Shown: positions 288 through 59,505 of the stretch, one piece after another
Layout: every line of letters starts with the position of its first letter
How positions within the stretch are numbered: the first letter of the stretch is position 1
Assembly (NCBI GenBank): GCA_046350655.1
Contig: JAXMAB010000005.1
Span: forward strand, 11,696 to 75,695
Reading direction: 5' to 3'
Length of the DNA: 64,000 nucleotides
DNA from: Planctomycetota bacterium
GTDB lineage: Bacteria > Planctomycetota > PLA2 > JAEUHO01
The notes under the pieces: generated by a model
What the model saw: only the letters and a program-made list of their open reading frames with translations
What the model was told of the DNA's origin: nothing
Database searches by the model: none
Translations under genes and position numbers: made by a program

Positions 288-1405
288 TAGGTCACCGACG
301 GCGCGCACGCGTCGGTCCAGACGCCGGCGGGTGCTCAGGGGCTTCCCCGTTCCGTGTCGCGCGCGGCGCCGGACGGGCGGACGGCCGGCGTCCGGGGGCC
401 CTCACTCCGGGACCCTCCCGCGGTGCCTCGGGGCGGGGCGCCGAAGGAGGCGGCGCGCCCTCCGGGTCGGATCCACCAGGAGAGTCGGCGAGAGGCATCT
501 CGGCGCCGGCTTCGAACGTCGCCTGTAACTCGGGGCTCGGAGCGATCGGCGGCGGCGCGCCGGCCGGCACTCCGGCACGCCGATCCTCCAGCAGCTTTGC
601 CCGAGGCGCGGCGCTTCGCGGGGAGGCGACCTGCTTCGGCTCTTGCGGTTTCGCGGACTTCGTCATGGGGACGCTCCGAACGGGGGACGAGGGCGTGGGA
701 CCGTCGAGCTGGCGTGTTGCGCACATGGACCGCTCACGCGGGCCTCAACGGCGAGGGGGTCGGCCGGACGGCCGCCCGCCCGGACGGCGCGGTGACGGGC
801 CCCGACGCGCCGCGTCCGGGTTCGACGCCACCGCTCGCGGATTCCCGCGAGACGGCGCCGTCCGTGAGGCGCCGTGTCACTTCGGGGGGACGAAGTGCGC
901 GACGCGCTCCGCCGCGATGCCGTGCAACTGGGTCTGGACGCGATGCTGGGCCCGATCGAACGCCGCGAGCATCGCGGCCTCCCACGTGCTCAACGGCGCG
1001 CGGTCGCCGGGGCGTGAACGACGGGAACGCGACGAGGCAGCGGCCGTCGGCTCGAGGCTCGACCTCGAGGCCCCGAAGGCGGCGGCCGTCGACAACCGAA
1101 TGGGGTACTGGACGCGCATGGTGCTTCGGCTCCGAGAGAGGTGCGCTTGCGTGTGGGTGGGCGGTCCCGAGGAACTGCCGGACGCGGTCGGCGGACGCGC
1201 CCCCCCACCGAACGCGTCCCGCCGAACTCGCGCCGCATCTCTGATGCCGACCGACGGGCCCTCGGGCGGCCGCGGCCCGGGAGTACCGGCGAGCGGTGCG
1301 CGGCGTTGGCGCCACGCTCCTGCGGTCACACCGGAACCGCGCGCCGCGCGCGCGGGCACGCGCCGATCGAGCCGGTGCGCCGGTCCGCGCGACTTCCTGG
1401 CGTTG

Positions 1406-1552
1406 CTAGCGTCCGAAGATGAGGTACAGCAGCACGATCGAACCCGGGACGCCGAGCAGCCAGAGCAGGACGGCCAGGCCCACCTTGCCCTCCTCCTTCT
1501 TGTTGGGCGGGCTGGGTGCGGGCAACTTCGACAGGGGCGAGTAGTCGTGCAT
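1406..1552 (-). CDS. Small (48 aa) membrane protein, DUF3309-like (MHDYSPLSKLPAPSPPNKKEEGKVGLAVLLWLLGVPGSIVLLYLIFGR)
   Basis: Internal Met of ORF 1406..1756; single clear TM helix, Lys-rich N-side, high GC3; the upstream part of the ORF is Arg-rich junk. Confidence 0.5.
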   Translation of the reverse strand: MHDYSPLSKLPAPSPPNKKEEGKVGLAVLLWLLGVPGSIVLLYLIFGR

Positions 1553-2326: not shown

Positions 2327-2498
2327 ACACGTACCCCTCGTTCGATCACGGTTCGCGCGGAACCGGCGAGCGGGATCCCGAGCCCCTTCCGCTGACGCGA
2401 GGCCCGGTCGCCGGCCGTCGACGCATGCAGGCGCCTACGGCGCCGTCGCGCGGGCCCGTCCCGCTGTGGAGTGCGCGGCCGGCCGCGGGCGGATCAGG

Positions 2499-14751: not shown

Positions 14752-15371
14752 CACGACCTCCCCGCGCGCGCCGCGCGCAGCACCCGGGGGAACAGCAGCT
14801 CGTTCTCGACGCCGATGTGGAGGAGCAGGTCGCGGTCGAGCGTCGCGAGCTGGCGGTAGAGCTCGTGCCAGGTCGGGCACGCGTCGGGCGGCGGGCGGTA
14901 GGCGTCGGTGCGGCGTCGGAGCCCCGCGAGCACCTCGAGGGTCGTGTCGTGCTCGCCCCGCATCACCGCGACGGGCATGGCGAGGTGCGGGAGCGCGCCG
15001 GCGCGGATCATCGGGAACAGCACCTGCTCCTCCTTCGCGAGGTGAGGGAGCAGCTCGTCGCGCAGCCCGACGAGGGTCGTCGTGAGGTCGGCGGCGCGCG
15101 CCGCGTGGTCGGCATGCGCCGCGTCCACGCGCGTCGAGAGCGCGACCACGTCGTCGAGCTGCCGGCGCAGCGGGACGTGGAAGTGGGCCTCGATGCGGTC
15201 GCAGAGCGCGGACGGCTCGAGGCGGAGCCAGAGGTCCGCGGTCGTCGCGGGGCCGACGGCCGCCGCCGGGTCGAGCGGAAGGAGCGTGGCGGACGGGCCC
15301 GGCGAGGGGCGCGACGAGCAGGTGCACGGGGACGTGTCGGGTCGGGGGATCGAGCGAGCAACGGCATCCAT
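14751..15371 (-). CDS. Hemerythrin-like di-iron protein of the ScdA/DnrN/YtfE (NO-responsive) type, 206 aa; stop overlaps the norZ start (ATGA)
   Basis: Internal Met (MDAVARSIP...) with GGAG RBS; HHE-type motifs HFHVPLRRQLDD, HADHAARAADL, HLAKEEQVLFPM, MRGEHDTTLEVL, HIGVENELLFP. Confidence 0.75.
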   Translation of the reverse strand: MDAVARSIPRPDTSPCTCSSRPSPGPSATLLPLDPAAAVGPATTADLWLRLEPSALCDRIEAHFHVPLRRQLDDVVALSTRVDAAHADHAARAADLTTTLVGLRDELLPHLAKEEQVLFPMIRAGALPHLAMPVAVMRGEHDTTLEVLAGLRRRTDAYRPPPDACPTWHELYRQLATLDRDLLLHIGVENELLFPRVLRAARAGRS

Positions 15372-15454
15372 GGGGAATCTCCGGAGGACACCCCCCTTAC
15401 GCAGGCCGCGATCCACATCGAAAACCGTTGTGGCAAAACGACTTACGACGGAGC

Positions 15455-15484
15455 GTTGCGATCTGCGCAACACCTCGACCGTTG
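15455..15484 (-). promoter_or_regulatory. Candidate sigma-54 (-24/-12) promoter for the hemerythrin-norZ operon, overlapping a GTTGCG-N5-CGCAAC palindrome
   Basis: Minus strand reads caacGGtcgaggtgTTGCgcag (GG-N8-TTGC spacing correct; -12 element good, -24 weak). The + strand palindrome gttgcgatctgcgcaac is at 15455..15471. Sits 90-110 bp upstream of the ATG and adjacent to divergent norR. Confidence 0.25.
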
Positions 15485-15502
15485 CTATGATCACAACACG
15501 TT

Positions 15503-17074
15503 ATGAACAAGACAACCGATGGCGACGACCTCGTCCTGGGCCTCGCGTTGGACCTCACGGTGGCGCTGTCCACGGAGGACCGCTACCGCCGCGTCGTGGC
15601 GGCGGTGCGCCGCGCGCTGCCCTGCGACGCGGCCGTCCTGTTCCGCCTCGACGGCGACGACCTCGTGCCCGTGGCCGCCCACGGCCTCGCGCCGGAGGCC
15701 CTCGCCCGACGGTTCTCCCGGCGGGCGCACCCGCGCCTCGACGCGATCTGCCGCTCCGACGGCCCGACCAGCTTCCCGCCCGACTCGCCGCTGCCCGACC
15801 CGTTCGACGGCCTCCTCGCGGCGGACCCCGACGCCACGCGCCACGTGCACTCGTGCTTCGGCGCGCCGCTCCGCGTCGAGGACACCCTCGTCGGCGTCCT
15901 CACGGCGGACGCGATCGACCCCCGCGCGTTCGCCGAGGCCGACGCCAAGACCCTCCGCACCCTCGCCGCGCTCGCCGGGGCCGCGATGCGCACGTCGGCG
16001 CTGATCGACGCGCTCCGCACCGAGGCCCAGCGGCAGGAGCGCGTCGCCCGCGACCTCCTGCGCGACGGCGAGCAGCGGCACGGCGGCCACCTGCTCGGCG
16101 AGTGCGCCTCGATCCGCCGCCTGCGCGACGAGATCGCCCTCGTCGGCGGCACCGACTTTCCGGTGCTCGTGACGGGCGAGACCGGCGTCGGCAAGGAGCT
16201 CGTCGCGCGCGGGCTGCACGCGGCCTCGCGTCGCGCGGACCGCGCGCTGATCTACGTGAACTGCGCCGCGCTCCCCGAGAGCGTGGCGGAGAGCGAGCTG
16301 TTCGGCCACGTGCGCGGCGCGTTCACGGGCGCGGACCGCGAACGGCCGGGGAAGTTCGAGGTCGCGGACGGCGGGACCCTCCTCCTCGACGAGGTCGGGG
16401 AGCTGCCGCTGTCGGTCCAGCCGAAGCTGCTCCGCGCGCTGCAGCACGGCGAGATCCAGCGCGTGGGCTCCGACCGCGCGCTGCGGGTCGACGTGCGGGT
16501 CGTCGCGGCCACGAACCGCGACCTCGAGGCCGAGGTCGCCGCGGGGCGCTTCCGCGCGGACCTCTTCCACCGCCTCGACGTGTATCGCCTGCGCGTGCCG
16601 TCGCTCCGCGACCGCGCCGACGACATCCCGCTCCTCGCCGGCTGGTTCGCCGACGCGACCCACCTGCGGCTCGGCACCGGCCCCGTGCGCTGGACCGCGT
16701 CCGCGCGGGCGACCCTCCGCCGCGGGACGTGGCCCGGCAACGTCCGCGAGCTCGAGAACGTCGTGTCGCGGGCCGTCCTGCGGGCGTCGGCCGAGGTGCC
16801 CCGCGGGGCACCCGTCGTGCTCGAGGTGCGCCACCTGACGGATGCCCCGCCGGCCGGCGACGCGAGGCCCGCCCCGCCGCCCGCGCCCGTCCACGCGCCC
16901 CTCGCGGGCCGCACGCTCCGCGAGGCGACCGAGGACTACCAGCGCGCGGCGGTGCGCGCGGCCGTCGCGGGCCACGGCGGGAACTGGGCCGCCGCCGCGC
17001 GCGACCTCGGGATGCACCGCAGCAACCTCCACCACCTCGCGCGCCGCCTCGGGCTGCGCGAGCGGCCCCCCTGA
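15503..17074 (+). CDS. norR: Sigma-54-dependent nitric-oxide-responsive transcriptional activator NorR (GAF + AAA+ sigma-54 interaction + Fis-type HTH), 523 aa
   Basis: GAF region, then Walker A GETGVGKE, GAFTGA motif, ESELFGH, C-terminal HTH; divergent from the NO reductase operon. Confidence 0.9.
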   Translation: MNKTTDGDDLVLGLALDLTVALSTEDRYRRVVAAVRRALPCDAAVLFRLDGDDLVPVAAHGLAPEALARRFSRRAHPRLDAICRSDGPTSFPPDSPLPDPFDGLLAADPDATRHVHSCFGAPLRVEDTLVGVLTADAIDPRAFAEADAKTLRTLAALAGAAMRTSALIDALRTEAQRQERVARDLLRDGEQRHGGHLLGECASIRRLRDEIALVGGTDFPVLVTGETGVGKELVARGLHAASRRADRALIYVNCAALPESVAESELFGHVRGAFTGADRERPGKFEVADGGTLLLDEVGELPLSVQPKLLRALQHGEIQRVGSDRALRVDVRVVAATNRDLEAEVAAGRFRADLFHRLDVYRLRVPSLRDRADDIPLLAGWFADATHLRLGTGPVRWTASARATLRRGTWPGNVRELENVVSRAVLRASAEVPRGAPVVLEVRHLTDAPPAGDARPAPPPAPVHAPLAGRTLREATEDYQRAAVRAAVAGHGGNWAAAARDLGMHRSNLHHLARRLGLRERPP

Positions 17075-39663: not shown

Positions 39664-39879
39664 CCGCGTAGCCCCCGCGCGGGGACGCGAGGCCCGGCCC
39701 GCCGCGGGACCGCGAGGCCCGGTCCGTCGCGGGTCGCGCGCAGGGAACCGCCCGGACGCCTCGCGCGGTCCGCCGCGGCCCCGGCGACGATGGGGTCGTG
39801 ACGCCCGACGTCCCGCCCCCCGCCGCGCCGCCCCCCGCCGCGCCGCCGGCCGACGCGCGCGCCGCGCGACCCGCGGCCC

Positions 39880-41571
39880 GTGCTCGTGACCGGCGCCACC
39901 GGGTACGTGGGCGGCCGCCTCGTGCCGCGCCTGCTCGAGGCCGGGCATCGCGTGCGCGCGCTCGCGCGCGACCCCCGCAAGCTCGCCGGCCGCGCCTGGA
40001 GCGCCGACCCGGGCCTCGAGATCGCGGCGGGCGACGTGCTCGACGAAGCCTCCCTCGCGGCGGCGTGCCGCGGCTGCCGCGCGGCCTACTGGCTCGTCCA
40101 CTCGATGGACGCGCGCCACGCGGACTTCGCCGAGGCCGACCGTCGGGCCGCCGCGGCGATGGCGCGGGCCGCCGCCGAGGCGGGCCTCGAGCGGATCGTG
40201 TACCTCGGCGGCCTCGGCGAGGACGGCCCCGACCTGTCGCCGCACCTGCGCTCGCGCGCCGAGGTGGCGCGCGTCCTCGCGTCGGGGCCCGTGCCCGTGA
40301 CGACGCTGCGCGCGGGGATGATCCTCGGGTCGGGCAGCGCGTCGTTCGAGATCCTGCGCTACCTCGTGGACCGCCTGCCCGCCATGGTGACGCCGCGCTG
40401 GGTCGGCACGCCGTGCCAGCCCGTCGCGATCCGCGACGTGCTCGGCTGGCTGGTCGGCGTGCTCGACGCGCCGGCCGCGGCGGGCCGCACGTTCGACGTG
40501 GGCGGCCCCGAGGTGCTCACGTACCGGCGGCTCATGGAGGTCTACGCCGAGGAGGCCGGGCTCCCGCGCCGGTGGATCGTCCCCGTGCCGATCCTCTCGC
40601 CGCGGCTCTCGTCGTACTGGATCCACCTGGTCACGCCGGTCCCCGCCGCGCTCGCGCGCCCGCTCGCGGAGGGGCTCCGCAACCCCGTCGTCGCCCACGA
40701 CGACGCGCTGCGCACGCTGCTGCCGCGCGACCTCCTGACCCCGCGCGAGGCGATCCGCCTCGCGCTCGAGCGGTTCCGCCACGACGCGACGGAGACGCAC
40801 TGGACCGACGCGGGGCGCCTCCCCGCGGCGGAGTGGAGCGACCCCGACGACCCGGCGTGGGCCGGCGGCACCGTGCGCGAGGACGTGCGCCGCGTCGTCG
40901 TCGCGGCGCCCATCGAGCGCGCGTGGGCGCCGGTCGCGCGGATCGGCGGGCGCACGGGCTGGTACCACGCGGACGGCCTCTGGGCCCTGCGCGGCCGCCT
41001 CGACCGGCTCGTCGGCGGCGTGGGGCTGCGCCGCGGGCGGCGCCATCCCGTGGACCTGCGCGTCGGCGACGCGCTCGACTTCTGGCGCGTCGTCGAGGTG
41101 GACCCGCCCCGCCGGCTGCGGCTCGTGGCCGAGATGCGCCTGCCGGGCCGCGCGACGCTCTCGATCGACCTGCGCGCGCTCGACGCCGGGCGCACCGAGA
41201 TCGTCTCGACGGCGCGGTTCGCGCCGCGCGGCCTCCTGGGCCTCGCGTACTGGACGGCCGTGGCCCCGATGCACCACGGCGTCTTCCACGGGCTCTTGAA
41301 GGGGCTCGCGAAGGCCGCGCGGGCGCGCGTGCTCGAGGGCCCCGAGGTCGTGCGCGTCCCGCGGCGCGCGAGGCCTCGCGCGGCGGCGGGCGCCCGCGCG
41401 CTGACGGCCGCGGCCGCGACGCCGGGATGCGACGCCGGGATGCGACGGAAGCGTTGCATCGCGCGCGGTCCACGCGACGCGGGCCCGGGACCCCGCGACG
41501 CGCGCACCCTCCGCGGGGTTCAATGGCGCGGGGTCGCGCGACGCGCGCGCAGGTCGAGGGGAGCGCCCCCG
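39880..41571 (+). CDS. NAD(P)-binding NmrA/SDR-like domain fused to DUF2867; 3' end unresolved (no in-frame stop before the next gene's start; the ORF runs on to 43197)
   Basis: GTG start; Rossmann GATGYVGGRLV; C-terminal domain (WxxxD...GGRTGWYH...LRG..D...VGD..DFWRV) DUF2867-like; followed by a low-complexity linker containing a 13-bp tandem duplication. Confidence 0.6.
41418..41443. repeat. Perfect 13-bp tandem duplication (gacgccgggatgc x2) in the linker between the DUF2867 and DUF1549 coding regions
   Basis: Seen directly; 13 is not a multiple of 3, so the duplication (or its absence) changes the downstream frame. Confidence 0.8.
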
Positions 41572-43197
41572 ATGCGTGCGTCGCGCGAGGTCCCGTCGGC
41601 CGCGGCCGGCCGGCGCCGTGCCCGCGCGGTCCCGGCGCTCGCGGTCGCGGCGCTCACGCTGCTGCCGCTCGCGTCGCCGTCGGTCGCGCCGGCGCGCGCC
41701 GCGCCCGAGCCGCCCGCGGCCGCGGCGCCGTGGGCCGCCGCGTCCGCGCGCGTGGACGCGCTCGTCCGCGCGCGGCTCGACGAGCTGGGGATCGCGCCGG
41801 CCCCGCGGTGCAGCGACGAGACGTTCGTGCGCCGCGCCTACCTCGACGTGACGGGGACGCTCCCGCGCCTCGACGAGGTGCGCGCGTTCCTGCGGAACCA
41901 GAAGCCGGACCGCCGCGCCGCGCTCGTCGACGCGCTGCTCGAGCGCGAGGAGTACGCCGACTACCTCGCGATGCGCTGGTGCACGCTCCTGCGGGTCAAG
42001 TCGGAGTTCCCGATCAACCTGTGGCCGAACGCCGTCCAGGCCTACCACCGGTGGATCCGGACCCAGGTCCGCGACAACGTCCCGTGGGACCGGTTCGCGC
42101 GCGCGCTCCTCACGTCGAGCGGCAGCAACGTCCGCGTGCCCGCGGTCAACTTCTACCGCGCGGTGCAGAAGAAGGACCCGCCGACCCTCGCGCGCGCGGT
42201 GGCGCTCACCTTCCTCGGCTGCCGCGCGGAGGCCTGGGAGAAGGCGCGGCTCGACGGCCTCGCGGCGTGCCTCGCGCGCGTGGGGTGGAAGACGACGGCG
42301 GAGTGGAAGGAGGAGATCGTCTTCTTCGACGTCACGAAGCCCGGTCTGCCCTCGACGACGCTCCCGGACGGCACCGTCGTGAAGCTGCCGCCGCGGCAGG
42401 ACCCGCGCGAGGTGCTCGCCGACTGGGTGGTGTCGCCGTCGAACCCGTGGTTCGCGCGGGCGATCGCGAACCGCGTCTGGTCGTGGCTGCTCGGCACCGG
42501 GATCGTGCACGAGCCCGACGACCTCCGGCCCGACAACCCGCCGTCGAACCCGGCGCTGCTCGAGCTCCTCGAGCGCGAGACGGTCGCCGGCGGCTTCGAC
42601 CTGAAGCACCTCTACCGCGTGATCCTCAACTCGCAGACGTACCAGCGCGCGTCGGTGCCGACCACCGACGACCCGCGCGCGGAGGCGGCGTTCGCGCACT
42701 ACCCGGTGCGCCGCCTCGAGGCCGAGGTGCTCATCGACGCCATCAACCAGGTGACCGGCACCGCCGAGGAGTACACGAGCAAGATCCCGGAGCCGTTCAC
42801 CTTCATGCCCGAGGGGCAGCGCTCGATCGCGCTGGCCGACGCCAGCGTGTCGAGCCCGTTCCTCGAGCTCTTCGGCCGCTCCGCGCGGGTGACGGGCCTC
42901 GAGTCGGAGCAGCGCGCCGCGCTGCCGACGGTGGCGCAGCGCCTCCACCTGCTCAACTCGACGCACCTGCGGCGCAAGCTCGAGCAGGGCCCGAACATGG
43001 CGGCGATGCTGAAGCCGACGGCGTGGCCCCGCGACACGTACGACACGCTGTACCTCACGATCCTGTCGCGGTACCCCACCGCGGCCGAGCTCGAGGCCGT
43101 CCGCGCGTACCAGGACGACGTCGGCGGCCTCGCGCGGGCCGGGACGGACCTCGCGTGGGCGCTGATCAACGGCGCCGAGTTCCAGTGCCGCCACTGA
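41572..43197 (+). CDS. DUF1549/DUF1553 (PSD1-type) secreted protein, planctomycete-like, 541 aa
   Basis: GAGGGGAG RBS; signal peptide; FVRRAYLDVTGTLP, EEYADYLAMRWCTLLRV, NLWPNAVQAYHRWI (DUF1549 block), then DUF1553-like C-half (NRVWSWLLGTGIVHEPDDL, NPALLELL). Confidence 0.8.
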   Translation: MRASREVPSAAAGRRRARAVPALAVAALTLLPLASPSVAPARAAPEPPAAAAPWAAASARVDALVRARLDELGIAPAPRCSDETFVRRAYLDVTGTLPRLDEVRAFLRNQKPDRRAALVDALLEREEYADYLAMRWCTLLRVKSEFPINLWPNAVQAYHRWIRTQVRDNVPWDRFARALLTSSGSNVRVPAVNFYRAVQKKDPPTLARAVALTFLGCRAEAWEKARLDGLAACLARVGWKTTAEWKEEIVFFDVTKPGLPSTTLPDGTVVKLPPRQDPREVLADWVVSPSNPWFARAIANRVWSWLLGTGIVHEPDDLRPDNPPSNPALLELLERETVAGGFDLKHLYRVILNSQTYQRASVPTTDDPRAEAAFAHYPVRRLEAEVLIDAINQVTGTAEEYTSKIPEPFTFMPEGQRSIALADASVSSPFLELFGRSARVTGLESEQRAALPTVAQRLHLLNSTHLRRKLEQGPNMAAMLKPTAWPRDTYDTLYLTILSRYPTAAELEAVRAYQDDVGGLARAGTDLAWALINGAEFQCRH

Positions 43198-49875: not shown

Positions 49876-50564
49876 CCGCGGATGCTACGGACCGCGGGGC
49901 GCAGGTCCCGCGCCGGCCGCACCGGCCGCGGCCACGGACGCGGGCTCCCCCGCGACGTCCGCGGGCGCCGGCGCCCCGCCCTCCGCCGCGGGCCCGCCCC
50001 CGCGGTCGCCGCCGCGGCGGCGGCCGACGCCCCCGCGGCCGGGTCCGCGCCGGCCGCCGGGCCTCGCGTCCCGGAACCCCGAGCGCGTCCTGCTCGCCTC
50101 GGGCCACCGGCGTCCCGTCGGCGACCGGCGTCCCGCCGGCGCCCGCGGGGCCGGCCGGCCGCCCGGTCGGCGCGGCGTCGCCGCCCGGTCCGACCGCGAA
50201 CCGCCCCGTGGGACACCGTCGATGCATCGCGTCGCTCCTACCCCTAGGACGGAATCGCCCGGTGGCCGACGCCAACGATCGGACGCCGGCGCCGCGCCGC
50301 GCCCGATCTGAACGCCGTCTTCACGACCGGAACGGTCCGGGCGGTCCTCCCGTCCCCCCGGGAGCCATGGCAAACCAAGAACCTGTCCCCGTAGCCTCCG
50401 TGCTGCGCCCGTCGATCCTCTCGCGGCGGCGGGCTTGCTCGCCTCGCGTCGGTCTCGCCGGGCTCGCGACGGGCCCTCCTGGGATCGGCTCCAACTCCAG
50501 CCGGGGCGCTCCCGGCGTCGATGGTCTACGAGGCGCCGCCCCCGCGCCGACGCAGGAACCCGTC

Positions 50565-50936
50565 ATGGCCCGCATCCTCGTCCTCGACGACGACGACGAC
50601 GTCCGTCCCGTGCTCGTCGAGCTGCTCACGAGGAAGGGGCACGTCGTCGTCGAGGCGCGCGACGGGCTCGTGGACCTCCGGGCCGTCGGCCCGGTCGACC
50701 TCGCCATCACGGACGTGTTCATGCCGGGCGCGGACGGGCTCGAGTTCCTGATGCGCGCCGGGCGCGAGGCGCCGCGGATGCCGGTCCTGATGCTGACCGG
50801 CGACCCCTTCTTCCGCGGCATGGACGTGCTGACGGTCGGGCGCCAGCTGGGCGCCAAGGCGGTCCTCATGAAGCCGGTGGACGTGGCGGCGCTGCTGTGC
50901 GCGGTGGACGCGGCGCTCGCCGGGTCGGGCGCGTGA
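50565..50936 (+). CDS. Stand-alone response-regulator receiver (CheY-like), 123 aa
   Basis: ILVLDDDDDVR...DLAITDVFMPGADG...LMLTG...KAVLMKPVD: DD, D (phospho-acceptor), T, K positions present; no output domain. Confidence 0.85.
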   Translation: MARILVLDDDDDVRPVLVELLTRKGHVVVEARDGLVDLRAVGPVDLAITDVFMPGADGLEFLMRAGREAPRMPVLMLTGDPFFRGMDVLTVGRQLGAKAVLMKPVDVAALLCAVDAALAGSGA

Positions 50937-51399: not shown

Positions 51400-53097
51400 A
51401 TGCGCGCGACCACGTCGTTCGTGACCCGGATCGGGGCCTGCCTCGTGGCGGCGCTCGCCGCGCTCGCGGGGGCCGGCGGGCCGGCGCGCGCGGACGGCGC
51501 CGACGTCGAGGAGGCGAAGCGCCTGCGGGACGCGTCGGCGGAGGACTGGAACGCGCAGCGGTACGCGGACGCGGCCGCGAAGCTCCGCCGCGCGCTCGCG
51601 ATCTACGCGGCCGCGCCGGACCGGTTCCGCGACGACCTCGCCGTGACGCGGCGGGCCCTCGTGTGGAACCTCGTCAAGTCGGGCGACCTGGAGGCGGCGT
51701 TCGCGCCGTTCGACGCGTTGCTCGTCGCGGGCCGGTCGGAGCCGACCGTGCGGCGCGAGCTGTTCACCGCGTACGGCGCGCTCTGGGAGGCCGCGCGCGA
51801 CGCGGGGTCGCTCGAGGGCGCCCACCAGGTGCTCGACCGCGTGCGCCTGCGGGCGTCGGCCGAACGCGACGCCGGCGTCGCGTCGCAGGTCCTGCACGAC
51901 CTCGCGAGCATCGCGCGCGACCGCGGCGCGCCGGACGAGGCGCTGCGCCTCCTCGAGCAGGCGGTGACCGAGCGGCGGGACGCGAAGGCCTCCACCGAGC
52001 TCGCGTGGAGCCTCAACAACCTCGCCAACCTCCACCTGGCGGAGGGGCGCCTCGACGCGGCCCTCGCCCCGCTCCTCGAGGCGCAGCGCCTCGTGCTCGA
52101 GCAGGGCGCGATCTCGCCCCAGGCGGCGGTGGGCGTGAACACGCGGACCGTCCTCGACCGGCTCGCGGGCGGCGAGACGCCGACCGCGGCGCGGCGCGCG
52201 TGGGTGTGGGACATGGCGGAGGTCGCCGCCGCGAGCGAGGTCGCGACGGTCCACCGGCCCGAGGTGCTGCTGCGGGCGGCGCTGCGCCTCGACGCGAAGG
52301 CGGGCGGGCCGTCCGAGCGGCTCGCGTCGGCCCGGCGGCTCGCGAAGCTGGTCGTGACGCCGACCGCGGCGCCCGTGGAGATCCGCGCCGACCTGCTGCT
52401 GCACGCCGCGACGGTCGCGATCGGCGCGGGCGGGGCGACGGACGCGCTGGGCTGGCTCGCGTCGGTGGACGTGGGCACGGGCCCCGCGGCGGGACACCTC
52501 GCCGCGCGGCGCGGCGTGGCGGTCGCGCTCGCCCGCGCGGCGCAGCAGCAGGGCGGCGAGACGACGGCGGCCGTCGAGGAGGCCCGCGGCGCGCTGAAGG
52601 CGCTGGGCGACCGCGGGCTCCGCGAGGCGAGCCTCGACGCCCTGGTCGTCGCGGCCGACCGCGCGGGGCTGACGTCGCTCGCGGGCTCGATGCGCGAGGA
52701 GCTCGCGGCCTCGAAGCGCGACGGGCAGCCCGGGGCGCGGGGCGCCTCCGCGATGTCGGGGGGCGACGTCGCGAAGTTCCGCGAGCTCGGGCCCCACGAC
52801 CCCGTGTTCGAGCTGCGGGCCGTCGGCATCCGGCTGCGCGTGACCGACCTCCTGACGCAGACGGTCGTCGAGCTCGACGGCACGTGGCAGCCGCAGGCCG
52901 TCGCGGTGCACGGGCTGACGCTCAAGGGCTTCGGGGCGTACGTGCGCCTGGACGGGTTCGCGTACGGCGAGGCCGCGGCCGCGTCGAACGGCGGGCCGAC
53001 GACGTTGACGCTCGACGCGGTCGAGCCGTACCTCGTCGTGCCGGCCGCCACCCCGCTCCGCATCCTCAAGAACGGCGCCGTCACCTACGCCCCCTGA
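51400..53097 (+). CDS. Secreted TPR-like alpha-helical repeat protein (565 aa)
   Basis: Signal peptide MRATTSFVTRIGACLVAALAALAGAGGPARA; TPR-like blocks (ELAWSLNNLANLHLAEGRLDAALAPLLEAQRL). Confidence 0.65.
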   Translation: MRATTSFVTRIGACLVAALAALAGAGGPARADGADVEEAKRLRDASAEDWNAQRYADAAAKLRRALAIYAAAPDRFRDDLAVTRRALVWNLVKSGDLEAAFAPFDALLVAGRSEPTVRRELFTAYGALWEAARDAGSLEGAHQVLDRVRLRASAERDAGVASQVLHDLASIARDRGAPDEALRLLEQAVTERRDAKASTELAWSLNNLANLHLAEGRLDAALAPLLEAQRLVLEQGAISPQAAVGVNTRTVLDRLAGGETPTAARRAWVWDMAEVAAASEVATVHRPEVLLRAALRLDAKAGGPSERLASARRLAKLVVTPTAAPVEIRADLLLHAATVAIGAGGATDALGWLASVDVGTGPAAGHLAARRGVAVALARAAQQQGGETTAAVEEARGALKALGDRGLREASLDALVVAADRAGLTSLAGSMREELAASKRDGQPGARGASAMSGGDVAKFRELGPHDPVFELRAVGIRLRVTDLLTQTVVELDGTWQPQAVAVHGLTLKGFGAYVRLDGFAYGEAAAASNGGPTTLTLDAVEPYLVVPAATPLRILKNGAVTYAP

Positions 53098-53340
53098 CGC
53101 CGAGGGCCGGCGGCGCGCCGCGTCGGCCCCTCCGTCGGGGGCGCCCCGTCGGGACGGGGGCGACGCCGCGCCACGCGCCCGTCGGCCCGCGGCGGGCCCG
53201 CGGGCCCGGCCCCCGCGGCGTCCGCGGGCCCGGCGGCGGGCGCGGACCGCGCCGCGCCCGGGGCCGCGGCAAGCCCCCCCTCCTCCCTCCGCCGCCTGCG
53301 GCGGCCGCCGGGACCGGCCCCGGCGGCGGGACCACCGAGG

Positions 53341-53375
53341 TCTTATATAACTGTACGTTTGTATAGTTGACTTAT
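53341..53375. promoter_or_regulatory. AT-rich island (tcttatataactgtacgtttgtatagttgactta) in an otherwise ~80% GC intergenic region, 64-98 bp upstream of the multiheme cytochrome operon; contains the near-palindrome ACTGTA-N6-TATAGT (CTGT-N8-ATAG) and TTGACT
   Basis: Seen directly; the strongest local compositional anomaly in the window. Confidence 0.5.
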
Positions 53376-53438
53376 GGGGCGGCGGGGGCAGACTGGGCCC
53401 GGTGGGACGCGCGGGCGCCCCGCCGGAGGCCAGAGCCC

Positions 53439-55004
53439 ATGAGCGCCCGGATCCTCGCCCTCGTCGTCGCCGCCGCGGTGGCGGCCGTCCTCGGCTTCGG
53501 CTGGCTCGTCGCGCCCGGCGCCGCGGCGCCGCCCCGCGACGACCCGCGGGCCCACCTGCCGGTCCGCCCGGCGCCGACGGACCACGCGCCGTTCTTCACG
53601 GCCCCCTTCGCCGACGGGCCCGCGGTGACGGCCGCGTGCCTGCGCTGCCACGAGGACGCCGCGGACGAGGTCCGCGCCACGACGCACTGGACGTGGGAGG
53701 GGGCCCACGCGAAGGACCCGGCGACGGGGGCGGACGTCGCGCTCGGCAAGCGGAACGGGATCAACAACTTCTGCATCGGCGTGGCGGCGAACTGGCCCCG
53801 CTGCACGTCGTGCCACGCCGGGTACGGCTGGAAGGACGACGGCTTCCTCGCCCGCGCGCGCGCGACGGACGTGGACTGCCTCGTGTGCCACGACACCTCG
53901 GGCCTGTACCAGAAGGACCCCGCGGGCGCGGGCGCCCCGGCCGCGGGCACCGACCTCCTCGCGGTCGCGCGCAGCGTCGGCCGCTCGAGCCGGGCGACGT
54001 GCGGCGCCTGCCACTTCAAGGGCGGCGGGGGCGACGGCGTGAAGCACGGCGACCTCGACGAGACCATGACCTTCCCGGCGGAGCGCGTCGACGTCCACAT
54101 GGGCCGGCACGGCCTCGCGTGCGCCGACTGCCACCGGACCGAGCACCACCGCGTCGCCGGCCGCCTCCTGCCCCCCACCGAGGACGCGGCGACGCGCGTG
54201 CGGTGCACCGACTGTCACGCCGCGCGGCCGCACGGCGACGCGCGGCTCGACGCGCACACCGCGACCGTCGCGTGCGAGACGTGCCACGTGCCGCGGTTCG
54301 CGGCCGAGACCCCGACGAAGCTCTTCTGGGACTGGTCGAAGGCCGGACGCGACGGCGAGCCGGAGGCGGTCGCCGAGGCCGTCCGGCAGGAGATCCTCGC
54401 GGGCGGCGAGGCCGCGCGCCACGTCGCGCCGGAGATCGTCGCGCTGCTGCGGCGCGTCGGCGACGACCCCGACCTCCACGTCCACTACGACAAGAAGAAG
54501 GGCCTGTTCCTCGTCGGTCGGCGGCAGGTGCCGGTCTACCGCTGGTACGACGGGACCACCGCGCGCCACGTCCCGGGGCAGCGGTGGGACGGCCCCGAGC
54601 CCCTGCCGGTGAACGCGCCGCAGGGCGCCGTCCGCGACCCGCGCGCGAAGATCCACCCGTTCAAGGTGCACCGCGGCGTCCAGCCGTTCGACGCGTCGGC
54701 CCGCCACCTGCTCGTGCCGCACACGTTCGGCCCGGGCGGCTACTGGAGCGCCTTCGACTGGGAGCGCGCGCTGCGGACCGGCGCCGCGGCGTCGGGCGTG
54801 CCCTACAGCGGCGAGCGCACCTGGATCGCGACGGAGATGTGGTGGCCGCAGGAGCACATGGTGGCGCCGAGGACCGACGCCCTGCGGTGCGTCGACTGCC
54901 ACGGCGACGGCGGGCGGATGGACTGGCGGGCCCTCGGCTACCCGGGCGACCCCGCCGTCGCCGGCGGGCGCGAGCAGGTGGGCGCGACGGGAGGTGCGCG
55001 ATGA
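53439..55004 (+). CDS. Periplasmic octaheme c-type cytochrome (8 CxxCH), octaheme tetrathionate-reductase-like family, 521 aa
   Basis: GGAGG RBS; signal peptide; CLRCH, CTSCH, CLVCH, CGACH, CADCH, CTDCH, CETCH, CVDCH. Confidence 0.85.
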   Translation: MSARILALVVAAAVAAVLGFGWLVAPGAAAPPRDDPRAHLPVRPAPTDHAPFFTAPFADGPAVTAACLRCHEDAADEVRATTHWTWEGAHAKDPATGADVALGKRNGINNFCIGVAANWPRCTSCHAGYGWKDDGFLARARATDVDCLVCHDTSGLYQKDPAGAGAPAAGTDLLAVARSVGRSSRATCGACHFKGGGGDGVKHGDLDETMTFPAERVDVHMGRHGLACADCHRTEHHRVAGRLLPPTEDAATRVRCTDCHAARPHGDARLDAHTATVACETCHVPRFAAETPTKLFWDWSKAGRDGEPEAVAEAVRQEILAGGEAARHVAPEIVALLRRVGDDPDLHVHYDKKKGLFLVGRRQVPVYRWYDGTTARHVPGQRWDGPEPLPVNAPQGAVRDPRAKIHPFKVHRGVQPFDASARHLLVPHTFGPGGYWSAFDWERALRTGAAASGVPYSGERTWIATEMWWPQEHMVAPRTDALRCVDCHGDGGRMDWRALGYPGDPAVAGGREQVGATGGAR

Positions 55005-57010
55005 GCCGTCGAGCCCTCCTCCTCGCCGCGGTCCTCGTCGCGGGCGCGGGCGTCGCGCGGGCCGGCAGCCCGATGCACCCCGACGTCCGCCTCCTCGACG
55101 ACGCCGGGGACGGCGTGCTCGAGAGCGGGCGGCCCGTGTCGCCCGCGCGGACCTGCGGGCAGTGCCACGACGTCGAGTTCATCGAGCGCCACGACTTCCA
55201 CGCGACGCTGGGCGCCGACGAGACGATGGCGCCGGGCACGGTCCCGGGCGGGCGCCCCTGGGACACGAGCGCGGGCCCGTTCGGGCGCTGGGACCCGGCG
55301 ACGAACCGCCGCCTCGCCCTCGACGACGACGCGCGCTTCGACCTCGGCGTCGCCGACTGGGTGCGGACCGTCGGGCAACGGCACGTCGGCGGCGGGCCCG
55401 CGCGGCTCGGCCGCGACGGCCGCCCGCTCGACGGCGACGGGCCGCGCGTCGAGACGCACGCCCTGGACCCGGCCAGCGGCCGGCCCGTCCCGTGGGACTG
55501 GGCGGCCTCGGGGACCGCGGAGCTCGACTGCTTCCTCTGCCACGTCCCCGGCGCGCGCGCGGACCTGCGCCGCGAGACGCTCGCCGCCGGACGGTTCCGC
55601 TGGGCGGCCACCGCGAGCCTCGTCGGCACCGGGCTCGCGGCCGCCGACGGCGACGGGTTCCGCTGGGTGCGCGAGGCGTTCACGAAGCACGGCACCGCGG
55701 ACCGGACGCGTCTGCCCCTCGGCCGCCCGACCGCGGCGGCCTGCGGCGCGTGCCACCTCGACCCGGACGCCGGCGCGAAAGGGACGTTCGTCGCCCGCGA
55801 CCCGCGCGCGGGCGGCCAGGTGGTCGCGCCCGGCCGCGTGGCCGACGCGGCGCTCGACCTCGCCGACAAGGACGCGCAGACGCAGCCCTTCGACGTCCAC
55901 GCCGCGCGGCTCGTCGGGTGCACCGACTGCCACCACAGCCTGAACGACCCCGCGCGCTTCTCCGAGGCCGCGGGCAGCCGGCCCGGGCACCTCGCCTACG
56001 ACGCGCGGCGGCTCGGGGTCGGCGACTTCGTGCGCACGCCGAGCCACGACCTCGCGAAGGGCACCTCGTCGCGCCCGCACGCCGCCGAAGGGCTCGACGG
56101 GACGGGGCGGCGCTGCGACGCCTGCCACGACGTCGCCGACGACCACGGGCGCTGGCTCCCCGCCGTCGGCCGGCACCTGCAGACGCTCTCGTGCGAGGCC
56201 TGCCACGTCCCCCGCGTCCCGACGGCGTCGGTCGAGCAGACGGACTGGACCGTGCTCGACGCCTCGGGCGGGCCCGTCGTCGCCCACCGCGGCGTCGAGG
56301 GCGCGATCGACGACCCGGCCGCGCTCCTCACGGGGTACGAACCCGTGCTCCTGCCGCGCCGCGACGCGGACGGCCGGACGCGGTACGTCCCCCACGCGCT
56401 CTCGACCACGTGGACGTGGGTCGGCGGCGTGCCGGAGCGCCCCGTGCGCCCGTTCGACCTCCGGGCCGCCTGGTTCGGCGCCGACGGCGCGCCGCACCCC
56501 GACGTCGTCGCCGCCCTCGACGCGGACCACGACGGCCGCCTCGCCGCGACGGAGCTCGCGCTCGACACGCCCGCGAAGGCGGCGGCCGTCCGCGCGCGCC
56601 TCGAGGCCGTCGGCATCGCCGCGCCGCGCATCGTCGGCACCGTGGAGCCGACGGGGCTCCACCACGGCGTCGTCGCCGCGGGGGCCGTCCGACGGTGCGA
56701 GACGTGCCACGCGTCGGACGGGCGGCTCGCCCGTCCGACGGTCGTGGCGACGCGGGTCCCCGCCGGCGCCGTCGCGACGTTCGTCGCGCACCGGTCGGTC
56801 TCGCTCGGCGGGACGCTCTCGGGCCGCGACGGCGCGCCGCTCGTCCACACGCCCTCGACCGCGGCGGCGGGCCGCTTCGTCCCCCGCAGGGACGACGCGG
56901 GCGTGCTCGACCTCGTGGGACTGCTCGCGTTCGTGGGCACCGCGCTCGGCGTCGCCGGGCACGCCCTCGCGCGGGTCGTGGCGCACCGACGCGCCGGGAG
57001 GACGTCATGA
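55001..57010 (+). CDS. Heptaheme c-type cytochrome with C-terminal transmembrane anchor, 669 aa; start overlaps the upstream stop (ATGA)
   Basis: Signal peptide; CGQCH, CFLCH, CGACH, CTDCH, CDACH, CEACH, CETCH; C-terminal VLDLVGLLAFVGTALGVAGHAL helix. Confidence 0.85.
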   Translation: MSRRALLLAAVLVAGAGVARAGSPMHPDVRLLDDAGDGVLESGRPVSPARTCGQCHDVEFIERHDFHATLGADETMAPGTVPGGRPWDTSAGPFGRWDPATNRRLALDDDARFDLGVADWVRTVGQRHVGGGPARLGRDGRPLDGDGPRVETHALDPASGRPVPWDWAASGTAELDCFLCHVPGARADLRRETLAAGRFRWAATASLVGTGLAAADGDGFRWVREAFTKHGTADRTRLPLGRPTAAACGACHLDPDAGAKGTFVARDPRAGGQVVAPGRVADAALDLADKDAQTQPFDVHAARLVGCTDCHHSLNDPARFSEAAGSRPGHLAYDARRLGVGDFVRTPSHDLAKGTSSRPHAAEGLDGTGRRCDACHDVADDHGRWLPAVGRHLQTLSCEACHVPRVPTASVEQTDWTVLDASGGPVVAHRGVEGAIDDPAALLTGYEPVLLPRRDADGRTRYVPHALSTTWTWVGGVPERPVRPFDLRAAWFGADGAPHPDVVAALDADHDGRLAATELALDTPAKAAAVRARLEAVGIAAPRIVGTVEPTGLHHGVVAAGAVRRCETCHASDGRLARPTVVATRVPAGAVATFVAHRSVSLGGTLSGRDGAPLVHTPSTAAAGRFVPRRDDAGVLDLVGLLAFVGTALGVAGHALARVVAHRRAGRTS

Positions 57011-57657
57011 GCGGTCGCGTCCGGCTCTACTCGGTCTACGAGCGGCTGTGGCACTGGGCCCAGGCCGGCACCGTGCTCCTCCTCCTGGCCACGGGCCTCG
57101 AGCTGCGCGGGACGTTCGCGCTCCTCGGCTTCGCGGCGGCCGTCCGCGTGCACGAGGTCGCCGGCTTCGTGCTGCTCGGCAACGCGGCGCTCGGGCTGTT
57201 CTACTTCCTGACGAGCGGCGCGATCCGCCAGTACGTCGGCGCGCCGCGCGACTTCGCGACGCTCGCCGTGCGGCAGGCCCGCTACTACCTCCGCGGGATC
57301 TTCCGCGGCGAGCCGCACCCCGTCGCCCGCACGAAGGAGGCGCGGCTCAACCCGCTCCAGCAGGTCGTGTACGTCGGCATCCTGAACGTGCTCCTGCCGT
57401 GGCAGCTGCTCACCGGCCTCGCGATGTGGGGCCTCGACCGCTGGCCCGCGCTCGAGGCGGCCGTCGGCGGGCTCGTCACGCTCGCCCCGCTCCACGCACT
57501 GGGCGCGTGGCTCTTCGCGACGTTCGTCGTCGCGCACGTCTACCTGACGACCACGGCGGGCCCGCGACCGGTGTCGGGCCTCGTCGCGATGGTGACCGGC
57601 TGGGAGGAGGAGGCGCCCCGCGCGGCGGCGCCCGCCCCGAAGGAGGTGGTGTCGTGA
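57007..57657 (+). CDS. Membrane b-type cytochrome (Ni/Fe-hydrogenase / formate dehydrogenase gamma / PhsC-like), 216 aa; ATGA overlap
   Basis: RVRLYSVYERLWHWAQAGTVLLLLATG (conserved ERxxHW start), 4 TM helices with His ligand candidates (VRVHEVAG, LHALGAWLFATFVVAHVY). Confidence 0.8.
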   Translation: MSGRVRLYSVYERLWHWAQAGTVLLLLATGLELRGTFALLGFAAAVRVHEVAGFVLLGNAALGLFYFLTSGAIRQYVGAPRDFATLAVRQARYYLRGIFRGEPHPVARTKEARLNPLQQVVYVGILNVLLPWQLLTGLAMWGLDRWPALEAAVGGLVTLAPLHALGAWLFATFVVAHVYLTTTAGPRPVSGLVAMVTGWEEEAPRAAAPAPKEVVS

Positions 57658-58175
57658 AGCGCCCCGGCCCCGGCCGCTACTGGAACCCCTACGTCGGCGG
57701 CGCCGTGCTCGGCACCGTCCTGTTCGTCTCCTTCCTGCTGACGGGCCACGGCCTCGGCGCCTCCGGCGGCGTCGCCCGCGTCGTCGTCGCCGCGCAGAAG
57801 GTCGTCGCCCCCGACCACGTCGACCGCACCGCGCTGCTGGCCGAGCTCGGCGGCGGCACGCGCGACCCGCTCGACGCGTGGGTCGTGGTCGGCATCCTCG
57901 GCGTCGCGCTCGGCGGGGCCGCCTCCGGCCTCCTCGCGGGGCGCTGGCGCCTCGAGACGTTCCGCGGTCCCCGCGTCGCGGTGCGCACGCGCTGGCTCCT
58001 CGCCCTCGCCGGCGGGACGGTCATGGGCTTCGCCGCGCGCCTCGCCCGCGGCTGCACGTCGGGCCAGGCCCTGACCGGCGGCGCGACGCTCGCCGTCGGC
58101 TCGTGGGTCTTCATGTTCGCGGTGTTCGCGGGCGGCTACCTCGTCGCGTGGCCGCTGCGCCGGCTCTGGAAGTGA
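57654..58175 (+). CDS. YeeE/YedE-family sulfur-compound transporter, N-terminal half-protein (173 aa); GTG start overlapping the upstream stop (GTGA)
   Basis: GxxxGxxGxC motif FAARLARGCTSGQALTGGA; 4 TM helices. Confidence 0.75.
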   Translation: MKRPGPGRYWNPYVGGAVLGTVLFVSFLLTGHGLGASGGVARVVVAAQKVVAPDHVDRTALLAELGGGTRDPLDAWVVVGILGVALGGAASGLLAGRWRLETFRGPRVAVRTRWLLALAGGTVMGFAARLARGCTSGQALTGGATLAVGSWVFMFAVFAGGYLVAWPLRRLWK

Positions 58176-58182
58176 GGCCGCC

Positions 58183-59505
58183 ATGCCCCTCGCCCTCGTG
58201 CCCCTCGCCCTCGCCCCCCTCCACCTCGACGGCGCCCTCGTCCCGCTGCTGCTCGGCGCCGCGTTCGGCGCGACGCTCGAGCGCTCCGGCTTCGGCGACG
58301 CCCGTCGCCTCGCCGCCCAGTTCACGCTGACCGAGATGCGCGTCCTCAAGGTGATGTTCACCGCGATCGTGACGTGCCTCCTGTGGATCACGCTCGCGAC
58401 GACGGCCGGCTGGATGGACTTCGGCGCGCTCGCGGTGAACCCCACGTACCTCGGGACCGCCGTCGTCGGCGGCCTCCTGCTCGGCATGGGCTTCGTCGTG
58501 GGCGGGTACTGCCCCGGCACCTCCATCGTCTCGGCGGCGACGGGGAAGGTGGACGGGATGTTCTTCCTCGGCGGCGTCGGCGCCGGCGTCTTCCTGTTCG
58601 GCGAGGCGGGCGGCGCGTTCCGCACCTTCTACGACACGGCCGGCGCGCTCGGCCGCGTGACGCTCCCCGACGTGCTCGGGCTCCCGTTCGGCGTCGTGGT
58701 CGCCCTCGTCGTGCTGATGGCGGCGGGGATGTTCGCGGGCGCCGAGGCGATCGAGCGGCGCTTCGGACCCGGCCCCGCGCCCGCCGACGCGAGGCCCGGC
58801 GGCCCGCGCCCCGCGCGCTCCGGCGGCCTCGCGCGCGCCGGCGCCCTGGCCGCGCTGGTCGCGGTCCTCGTCGCGTTCGCGTCGCCCGCCGCCGGCGGCG
58901 GCGCGGTCGCCGCGCGTGTCGGGCTCCTGCGCCCCGCGCACGACGCCACGCTCGCGTCGCGGTCCGTCCACGCCGACCCCGTCGAGGTGGCGGGCCTCCT
59001 CCACCGCGAGCTCGGCGGCAAGCCCGCGCGGTTCGACCTCGTGCTCCTCGACGTGCGCGACCCGTCGTCGTGGAACCGCTTCCACCTCGAGGACGCGCGC
59101 TCGACGACCCTCGACCGCCTCCGCGGCGACGAAGGGCGCGCGTGGGCCGACCCGCGCCACGCGACGTCGATCAAGGTCGTGCTGGGCGACGACGAGGCGC
59201 GGGCCGAGGAGGCCTGGCGCCTCCTCGCGGCGCACGGCGCGAAGCACGTCTACGTCCTCGCGGGCGGCGTGAACCTCTGGCTCGACGTCTTCCGCGACGG
59301 GAGGATGGACGCCGCGCCGGCCCGCGGCGCCGCCGCGACGGACACGCTGCGGCACGCCTTCCCCGCGTCGCTCGGGGCCCGGTGGCCGTTCGCGCGGCCC
59401 GACGAGGCGACGTACCGGCGGATCCTCGCGACGAAGGCCCGGGCGTTCGCGCCGCGCGTGAAGCCCGTCACGAAGTCCGTCGCGGCCTCCGGCGGCTGCG
59501 GCTGA
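58183..59505 (+). CDS. YeeE/YedE C-terminal half fused to a rhodanese-like domain (440 aa); the rhodanese lacks the catalytic Cys; the protein ends -SGGCG
   Basis: GFVVGGYCPGTS YeeE motif; rhodanese fold DLVLLDVRDPSSWNRFHLEDA ... KHVYVLAGGVNLW (Leu-Ala where the Cys loop is expected); C-terminal ...KSVAASGGCG*. Confidence 0.75.
   Translation: MPLALVPLALAPLHLDGALVPLLLGAAFGATLERSGFGDARRLAAQFTLTEMRVLKVMFTAIVTCLLWITLATTAGWMDFGALAVNPTYLGTAVVGGLLLGMGFVVGGYCPGTSIVSAATGKVDGMFFLGGVGAGVFLFGEAGGAFRTFYDTAGALGRVTLPDVLGLPFGVVVALVVLMAAGMFAGAEAIERRFGPGPAPADARPGGPRPARSGGLARAGALAALVAVLVAFASPAAGGGAVAARVGLLRPAHDATLASRSVHADPVEVAGLLHRELGGKPARFDLVLLDVRDPSSWNRFHLEDARSTTLDRLRGDEGRAWADPRHATSIKVVLGDDEARAEEAWRLLAAHGAKHVYVLAGGVNLWLDVFRDGRMDAAPARGAAATDTLRHAFPASLGARWPFARPDEATYRRILATKARAFAPRVKPVTKSVAASGGCG

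Follow-up and report, generated by a model that had tools for sequence, protein, structure and literature searches.

What is the function of a short AT-rich island in the GC-rich DNA that precedes a respiratory operon? We addressed this question for a 35-bp island in a stretch of 64,000 nucleotides (hereafter the window) from contig JAXMAB010000005.1 of a Planctomycetota bacterium, in which the island lies upstream of an operon headed by otr, a gene for an octaheme tetrathionate-reductase-family c-type cytochrome. The locus in the window is referred to as W, and related loci carry the labels L001, L002 and so on. Comparison of these loci makes it reasonably probable that the island represents the 5′ control region of this operon, which would combine a sigma-70-type core promoter with an abutting, conserved block that is a putative regulator site. 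The element behaves as an ordinary regulated bacterial promoter, and no new mechanism is evident.

A conserved AT-rich island upstream of otr

The first-pass annotation of the window described a sharply bounded segment of low GC content in the GC-rich gap upstream of the cytochrome operon, and this description was borne out. The island (tcttatataactgtacgtttgtatagttgacttat, identical in its letters to the earlier quotation) has a GC content of 25.7%, the minimum of all 35-mers in the window, for which the median is 77% and the overall GC content 76.1%. Just three stretches elsewhere in the window reach 45% GC or less at the 35-mer scale, and at the 20-nt scale the island is again the window minimum (25% GC). 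AT-richness of this degree is far beyond chance. The island is positioned 64–98 bp upstream of otr within a gap of 341 bp that extends from the stop codon of a TPR-repeat gene (53097) to the otr start codon (ATG, 53439), and the remainder of this gap is composed almost entirely of G and C (Table 1). The GC-only spacer between the TPR gene and the island is rich in imperfect inverted repeats and forms context outside the conserved module. No counterpart of the spacer is present in L001, the closest and near-identical relative of W, where the island is instead preceded, at a distance of 28 bp, by the end of a 244-aa open reading frame (ORF) that belongs to no known family. The spacer was ruled out as a remnant of this ORF, as there is no similarity between them. 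GC-only low-complexity stretches of the same kind also occur elsewhere in the window, for example at 49903–50185.

Orthologous upstream regions were obtained from one genome scan, one metagenome scan and look-ups of Otr homologues. Eight loci (W, L001, L002, L025, L045, L003, L041 and L042), with Otr identities of 66–92% (77% for L045 and 69% for L041), have an AT-rich island upstream of otr whose offset is the same, and the seven loci besides W are all from uncultured Planctomycetota. The upstream neighbour was different in every island-bearing locus for which it is known (7/8; L002 was left out of this comparison, the upstream sequence of its contig being too short). The neighbours comprise the TPR gene in W, the unknown 244-aa ORF in L001, a CHAT-TPR gene in L025, a sigma-54 activator gene in L045, a divergent metallophosphoesterase gene in L003, a divergent ArsR-family gene in L041 and ruvB in L042. 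Because the neighbours all differ while the island stays with otr, the island belongs to the otr operon, and on this comparison it is a cis element of that operon restricted to one small clade of uncultured Planctomycetota. No island was present at otr loci with Otr identities of 62% or less (L004, L009, L043, L044 and L046), though the operon is the same. In at least two of these more distant planctomycete loci (L004, 1225–1235, and L044, 1463–1473; 57–61% identity) its place seems to be taken by G-rich DNA that contains the -10-like hexamer TAGGAT. With another upstream region in use at these loci, the promoter seems to have turned over while the operon was conserved.

Conservation within the island was assessed with a gap-free alignment anchored on the TTG of a TTGACT hexamer at the 3′ edge of the island, with identities calculated over seven non-redundant loci. 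The mean pairwise identity was 0.59 in the 27 bp upstream of TTG and 0.75 in the hexamer, and 0.32–0.40 in the flanks and in the spacer downstream of the hexamer. The 27-bp block has a GC content of 37%, compared with 71–83% in its flanks. Across the seven loci the pattern AT..AACT....G.....AT..TTG is invariant, corresponding upstream of TTG to A 53345, T 53346, AACT 53349–53352, G 53357, A 53363 and T 53364 of the window. Outside the AT-rich block, an additional upstream motif (cGGACC) occupies one and the same offset in five loci (W, L001, L002, L025 and L045) and is displaced by 1 in L042.

The candidate core promoter

The TTGACT hexamer, correctly noted in the first-pass annotation, resembles the -35 element (TTGACA) of a sigma-70 promoter. 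Four of the eight loci have TTGACA at this place and two have TTGACT; the remaining two have TTGTGA and TTGCGA, respectively. TTGACW is found only once in the 64-kb window, against 7.25 ± 2.74 occurrences expected, and neither W nor the five related loci with a TTGACW hexamer contain a further TTGACW anywhere in the respective locus. In every locus, a hexamer with A at its second and T at its sixth position (A2/T6) was identified 15–17 nt downstream of the -35-like hexamer: CAGACT in W, GAGACT in four loci, and TAGGCT, GAGAAT and CATAGT in the others. The spacer measures 16 nt in six loci, 15 nt in L041 and 17 nt in L042. When the downstream segments were shuffled, the chance of an equally good hexamer at a spacing of 15–17 nt was P = 0.002–0.017 per locus. 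This -10-like hexamer sits in GC-rich sequence that is otherwise unalignable, and its recurrence is not just a matter of shared ancestry because the L041 and L042 hexamers are unrelated to the others. The earlier statement that no convincing sigma-70 -35/-10 pair could be aligned is correct for the W sequence alone, but does not survive the comparison of loci, in which a -35-like and a -10-like hexamer are conserved.

The comparisons establish the position and conservation of the island, the spacing of the hexamers and the association with otr; from them we infer how the two hexamers would be used and where transcription would start. The arrangement TTGACT-16 nt-CAGACT would be the core of a sigma-70-type promoter, its strong -35 element lying at the 3′ edge of the island and its weak, GC-rich -10 element outside it, from which transcription is predicted to start near 53401 with a leader of approximately 38 nt that carries GGAGG. 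It shares with known sigma-70 promoters that have an upstream site the TTGACA-like -35, the 15–17-nt spacer, a -10 with A2/T6, an AT-rich block at approximately -35 to -61, and a ribosome-binding site and ATG 40–70 nt downstream, and differs from them in the unusually GC-rich -10 of W and its orthologues (CAGACT or GAGACT). We found nothing usable described in the literature on a Planctomycetota promoter consensus or on otr regulation, and no tRNA genes for the calibration of house-keeping promoters in the window or in six related loci (L001–L004, L009 and L025).

An alternative that we regard as unlikely, though it has several points in its favour, places the promoter inside the island. TATAGT (Table 1) would then serve as a -10 element without a -35, with transcription starting near 53374, and the dyad symmetry described below (either the 9-6-9 form or AACTGTA-N6-TATAGTT) would overlap both the spacer and the -10, as is classical for a repressor operator. 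In that case, TTGACT and CAGACT would either be fortuitous or belong to a second promoter in tandem with the first. The form wATrsT is kept in all eight loci with A2 and T6 invariant, in W it matches TATAAT at 5/6 positions, and it lies in the most easily melted DNA of a 76%-GC context. ArsR-family repressors usually overlap the core promoter. Moreover, the promoter of an ArsR-family gene at L051 (see below) has a similar layout, with a palindrome ending in AATAC followed by TTGAAC, and must use AATACT as its -10, since no more than about 31 nt remain before the ATG. However, a promoter at TATAGT does not account for the remaining letters, TGACA, of the perfect TTGACA found in four loci, or for an A2/T6 hexamer that recurs at 15–17 nt at the probabilities given above and in unrelated sequence in L041 and L042. 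In addition, no locus has a -35-like hexamer 16–18 nt upstream of TATAGT or a TGn extension before it.

A putative operator beside the -35-like hexamer

The AT-rich block of 24–27 bp (53340–53366) directly abuts the -35-like hexamer. In W it contains an imperfect dyad of two 9-bp arms separated by 6 bp (TTATATAAC-tgtacg-TTTGTATAG) in which 6/9 arm pairs are complementary. Seven of nine arm pairs were found in L002 and L025 (both CTATATAAC-N6-GTTGTATAC), in L045 (CGATACAAC-N6-GTTGTATAC, with seven contiguous perfect pairs) and in L041. The dyad consensus is CTATAyAAC-N6-GTTGTATAs, with its centre 12.5 bp upstream of TTG. In sums over six non-redundant loci, which do not yet include L045, this was the best of the dyad centres tested, with 36/66 pairs, compared with 34/66 for the centre 8.5 bp upstream of TTG that corresponds to the symmetry reported in the first-pass annotation. 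We regard dyad symmetry of the block as suggestive, not established.

The earlier symmetry, a near-palindrome ACTGTA-N6-TATAGT, is present as described (half-sites at 53350–53355 and 53362–53367), but its pairing is weak among the orthologues, with 2/6 pairs in L002 and 3/6 in L025 and L003; the longer form AACTGTA-N6-TATAGTT has 4/11 pairs in L002 and L025. Likewise, the reported direct repeat TGTA-N4-TGTA exists in W (53352–53355 and 53360–53363), but is not conserved in any orthologue outside L001. The centre of the earlier dyad (53358.5) would lie at about -42 from the predicted transcription start and overlap the -35, as in class II CRP/FNR sites (centred at about -41.5); unlike such sites, it is weak in L002 and L025, and neither TGTGA-N6-TCACA nor TTGAT-N4-ATCAA half-sites are present in the island. 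The suggestion that the island is an operator or an entry site for a regulator rather than a simple promoter was upheld in part. The block is conserved beyond what core hexamers would need, and it is plausible that part of the island (53340–53366) is the docking site of a specific regulator; however, the promoter hexamers are conserved as well.

A specific indication of such a site came from L041, where a 125-aa ArsR/SmtB-family gene (HTH_5) is divergent from otr and the island lies in the shared 98-bp intergenic region. Homologues of this ArsR protein are encoded in unrelated contexts, and a 9-6-9 palindrome was found just upstream of their own genes (Table 1). A weight matrix built from the three palindromes (L047, L048 and L051) gave the L041 island a score of 21.2 bits, against 2.5 bits for the runner-up in that locus. 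The palindrome consensus of this SmtB-like ArsR subfamily, sTATTACAy-N6-rTGTAATAs, is presumably its autoregulatory operator, and the L041 block is very probably, judging from the matrix match, the operator of the adjacent divergent ArsR regulator. Because L041 matches the operator, the position directly upstream of the conserved -35-like hexamer can serve as a regulator site. The W block and the L041 operator are alike in geometry, position and outer bases (sTAT...ATAs), and differ in their inner bases. Similarly, the operators of known ArsR/SmtB proteins (SmtB, CzrA, BigR/SqrR, and SoxR/sHdrR of Hyphomicrobium) are AT-rich imperfect inverted repeats at autoregulated promoters, and the W block recalls them in its 9-6-9 dyad, in the sTAT...ATAs outer positions and in abutting the core promoter; it resembles their architecture, although its membership of the class is not shown.

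ArsR-family genes directly upstream of otr were also found in L010, L021 and L017, giving four loci from different phyla when L041 is included. In L010 (Myxococcales) arsR and otr are co-directional and the ArsR protein is BigR/SqrR-like, and the region upstream of arsR-otr (9440–9545) contains a separate AT-rich island, unrelated to the one described here, in which repeats (GATAAC...GTTATC and TCGATAA) are combined with the -10-like hexamer TAGGAT. The L041 ArsR is SmtB-like and not BigR/SqrR-like. ArsR-type repressors that respond to sulfane sulfur are encoded beside YeeE-type transporters, and ArsR repressors that sense persulfide typically have YeeE/rhodanese genes as neighbours (PMC12423496).

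On these grounds, the most likely role of the block is to bind a dimeric regulator with sequence specificity, which would control the access of RNA polymerase, and a winged-helix geometry is suggested for this protein. The block may double as an AT-rich upstream element compensating for the weak -10. We further propose, tentatively, that the block is the operator of a candidate regulator of tetrathionate/thiosulfate-type respiration in this uncultured clade of Planctomycetia, and that the operator was exchanged in L041. An ArsR/SmtB repressor is the only candidate family for W with any support, and this support is indirect; that the W regulator is itself an ArsR-family paralogue appears doubtful.

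Several observations weigh against this account. For the core promoter, a scan with the sigma-70 consensus rejects the TTGACT/CAGACT pair in the single W sequence, CAGACT agrees with TATAAT at just 3/6 positions, and TATAGT inside the island is the better -10 by sequence. The 9-6-9 dyad is poor in L003 and L042 (3/9 pairs), and the best dyad is only marginally above a column-shuffle null (family-wise P = 0.057). With respect to the ArsR family, the W block fails the L041-type matrix (-2.0 bits, rank 119 of 64000) and no ArsR-family gene was detected in the 64-kb window by tblastn (E ≤ 10), and on both counts the L041 lead was rejected as a direct identification of the W regulator. These two results, along with the marginal dyad, also set the W block apart from known ArsR/SmtB operators. 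Homologues of the SmtB-like L041 ArsR adjoin genes for an RND pump, a TonB receptor and an MtrA-domain protein, so that its adjacency to otr could be incidental. Finally, no second site was found in the window or in approximately 100 kb of related DNA, using the full motif (allowing up to 3–4 mismatches), half-motifs or a matrix of the W-type dyad. The search for further copies proposed in the first-pass annotation was thus run within the 64-kb window, where the motif is unique and no regulon came to light; yet the island is conserved in orthologous loci.

The sole other match to the W-type dyad matrix (41438–41461, GGATGCGAC-ggaagc-GTTGCATCG, 10.7 bits) lies inside a DUF1549/DUF1553 gene (39802–43197) and is probably due to chance. 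The adjacent orphan receiver (50208–50936), earlier put forward as a candidate regulator, consists of a receiver domain only, with no DNA-binding domain according to Pfam; this candidate was rejected, being syntenic in L001 only and not in the other island-bearing loci.

It is also conceivable, though rather improbable, that no specific regulator is involved and that the block, as an UP-like element or as DNA that bends or opens easily, only raises the output of a promoter whose -10 is weak, by way of contacts with the RNA polymerase alpha subunit. Under the promoter favoured here the block falls at about -35 to -61, the location of UP elements (approximately -40 to -60), its AT-richness is conserved against GC-rich flanks, and the dyad symmetry is statistically insecure. 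On the other hand, by eye it matches the published UP consensus nnAAAWWTWTTTTnnnAAAnnn at only about 7/14 specified positions, and three of these matches fall on degenerate W positions. AACT and G, which are invariant, lie outside this consensus and would be superfluous for mere AT-richness, and the L041 block strongly matches the operator of a specific regulator. Because the block misfits the A/T-tract consensus and has the invariant AACT and G, we argue for sequence-specific recognition.

Promoters for alternative sigma factors are very unlikely. An extracytoplasmic function (ECF) type promoter (TATAAC-N17-GAC) would be consistent with the invariant AAC and with a GAC 17 nt later in most loci, and planctomycetes encode many ECF sigma factors; however, the putative ECF -10 is unconserved (GAC, GTG, GCG). 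For sigma-54, a GG-N10-GC string occurs in W at 53376–53389 and a sigma-54 activator gene lies upstream of otr in L045, but the string was absent from the same place in L001 and L002 on inspection, and in DNA so rich in GC such strings are to be expected by chance. Neither type accounts for the conserved A2/T6 hexamer, and as other ALTERNATIVES, ECF and sigma-54 were both rejected, their elements being unconserved. The L045 gene (1614–2798) encodes a sigma-54 enhancer-binding protein (AAA+ and HTH_8) directly upstream of the island-bearing otr; a conserved -24/-12 element was not found at L045, and the link to the activator there may be incidental.

A LexA/SOS operator of the CTGT-N8-ACAG type, to which the first-pass annotation drew attention, is highly improbable. 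The string CTGT-N8-ATAG (53351–53366) of W and the near-identical L001 is indeed one mismatch from the gammaproteobacterial core, but this resemblance is at chance level, since 7.09 ± 2.46 one-mismatch matches would be expected in the window and only 2 occur. The half-sites vary among the orthologues (CTGG..ATAC in L002, CTGT..ATAC in L025 and L003, CTCT..ATAC in L045 and CTAC..ATAG in L041), the downstream genes serve respiration and sulfur transport and not DNA damage, and the host is a planctomycete and not a gammaproteobacterium, so that a LexA/SOS box is effectively refuted. Least probable of all is an RNA element (a leader hairpin, riboswitch or small RNA): as RNA, the W sequence gives a stable hairpin across the island (z = -4.8), but no Rfam family matches the island, RNAalifold gave 0 consensus pairs across seven orthologues, and conservation follows the promoter hexamers and not paired columns.

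Genomic context and implications

The otr product matches TIGR04315 with E = 3.8e-152 and 507 bits (cutoff 375), and its gene has a GC content at third codon positions of 0.98. The closest relatives of the Otr protein are from uncultured Planctomycetota, and the presence of DUF1549/DUF1553 proteins in the window is consistent with a planctomycete origin. The order of the five-gene operon (Table 1) is common to L002, L003, L004 and L009, and in the shorter contigs L001, L025 and L026 it matches as far as they reach.

Table 1. Features of the island, its surroundings and the otr operon at W, and ArsR-type palindromes at other loci
Locus	Feature	Position	Strand	Remarks
W	TPR-repeat gene upstream of the gap	51400–53097		Pfam
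W	GC-only spacer, TPR gene stop to island	53098–53340		243 bp, 85–97.5% GC
W	GGGACC, conserved upstream motif (cGGACC)	53328–53333	+	34–39 bp upstream of the -35-like TTG
W	AT-rich island as reported	53341–53375	+	26% GC
W	Conserved AT-rich block, candidate operator	53343–53366	+	Imperfect 9-6-9 dyad, identity 0.59
W	Near-palindrome ACTGTA-N6-TATAGT	53350–53367	+	Includes CTGT-N8-ATAG; 5/6 pairs in W
W	TATAGT, alternative -10	53362–53367	+	wATrsT in all loci; last T shared with the -35-like hexamer
W	TTGACT, -35-like hexamer	53367–53372	+	Island 3′ edge; TTG invariant in 8 loci
W	CAGACT, -10-like hexamer	53389–53394	+	16 nt after the -35-like hexamer; A2 and T6 kept; outside the island
W	Predicted transcription start	53400–53402	+	6–8 nt after the -10-like hexamer
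W	GGAGG ribosome-binding site	53425–53429	+	9 nt before ATG; GGAG(G) kept in orthologues
W	otr, octaheme tetrathionate-reductase-family c-type cytochrome, first gene of operon	53439–55004	+	TIGR04315
W	Remaining conserved operon genes	55005–59505	+	Pfam matches
W	Second multihaem cytochrome	to 57010	+	Pfam
W	Cytochrome b561	to 57657	+	Pfam
W	YeeE/YedE sulfur transporter	57660–58175	+	Pfam
W	YeeE/YedE-rhodanese fusion	58183–59505	+	Pfam
L041	Island palindrome	1422–1445		CTATTACAC-tactcg-ATGAAATAG; dyad centre -12.5 as in W
L047	Palindrome upstream of ArsR homologue gene	2474–2497		CTATTACAC-agcata-GTGTAGTAG
L048	Palindrome upstream of ArsR homologue gene	2404–2427		GTATTACAC-aacata-GTGTATTAC
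L051	Palindrome upstream of ArsR homologue gene	345–368		GTATTACAT-cgatcg-ATGTAATAC

Among the intergenic stretches of the window, the second highest AT-richness is that of 15397–15518 (with a minimum of 37% GC per 35 nt), which is located between a gene for a qNOR-type nitric-oxide reductase on the minus strand (12433–15373; NorB cytochrome-c-like domain and COX1) and a divergent gene on the plus strand (15519–17074) that encodes a GAF and sigma-54-activator protein. The two genes look like a NorR-type pair, and a GG-N10-GC string was seen by eye on the minus strand near 15404–15419.

As far as could be found in the literature, the motif CTATAyAAC-N6-GTTGTATAs beside TTGACW has not been described. 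Planctomycetota promoters and operators are themselves almost undescribed and the organisms uncultured, and the promoter proposed here is defined by comparison of loci in its -35, its spacer and its -10. It could be used for reading transcription signals in high-GC planctomycete genomes, in the search for the regulator and in the design of expression tools. If the block is an operator as tentatively proposed, the candidate regulator could be of the winged-helix type, and sulfur compounds or the redox state may be what it responds to. The otr loci of this clade would then provide a case of regulator swapping, in which a promoter scaffold of TTGACW and a weak -10 stayed fixed and the operator was replaced in L041 by that of a neighbouring SmtB-like ArsR.

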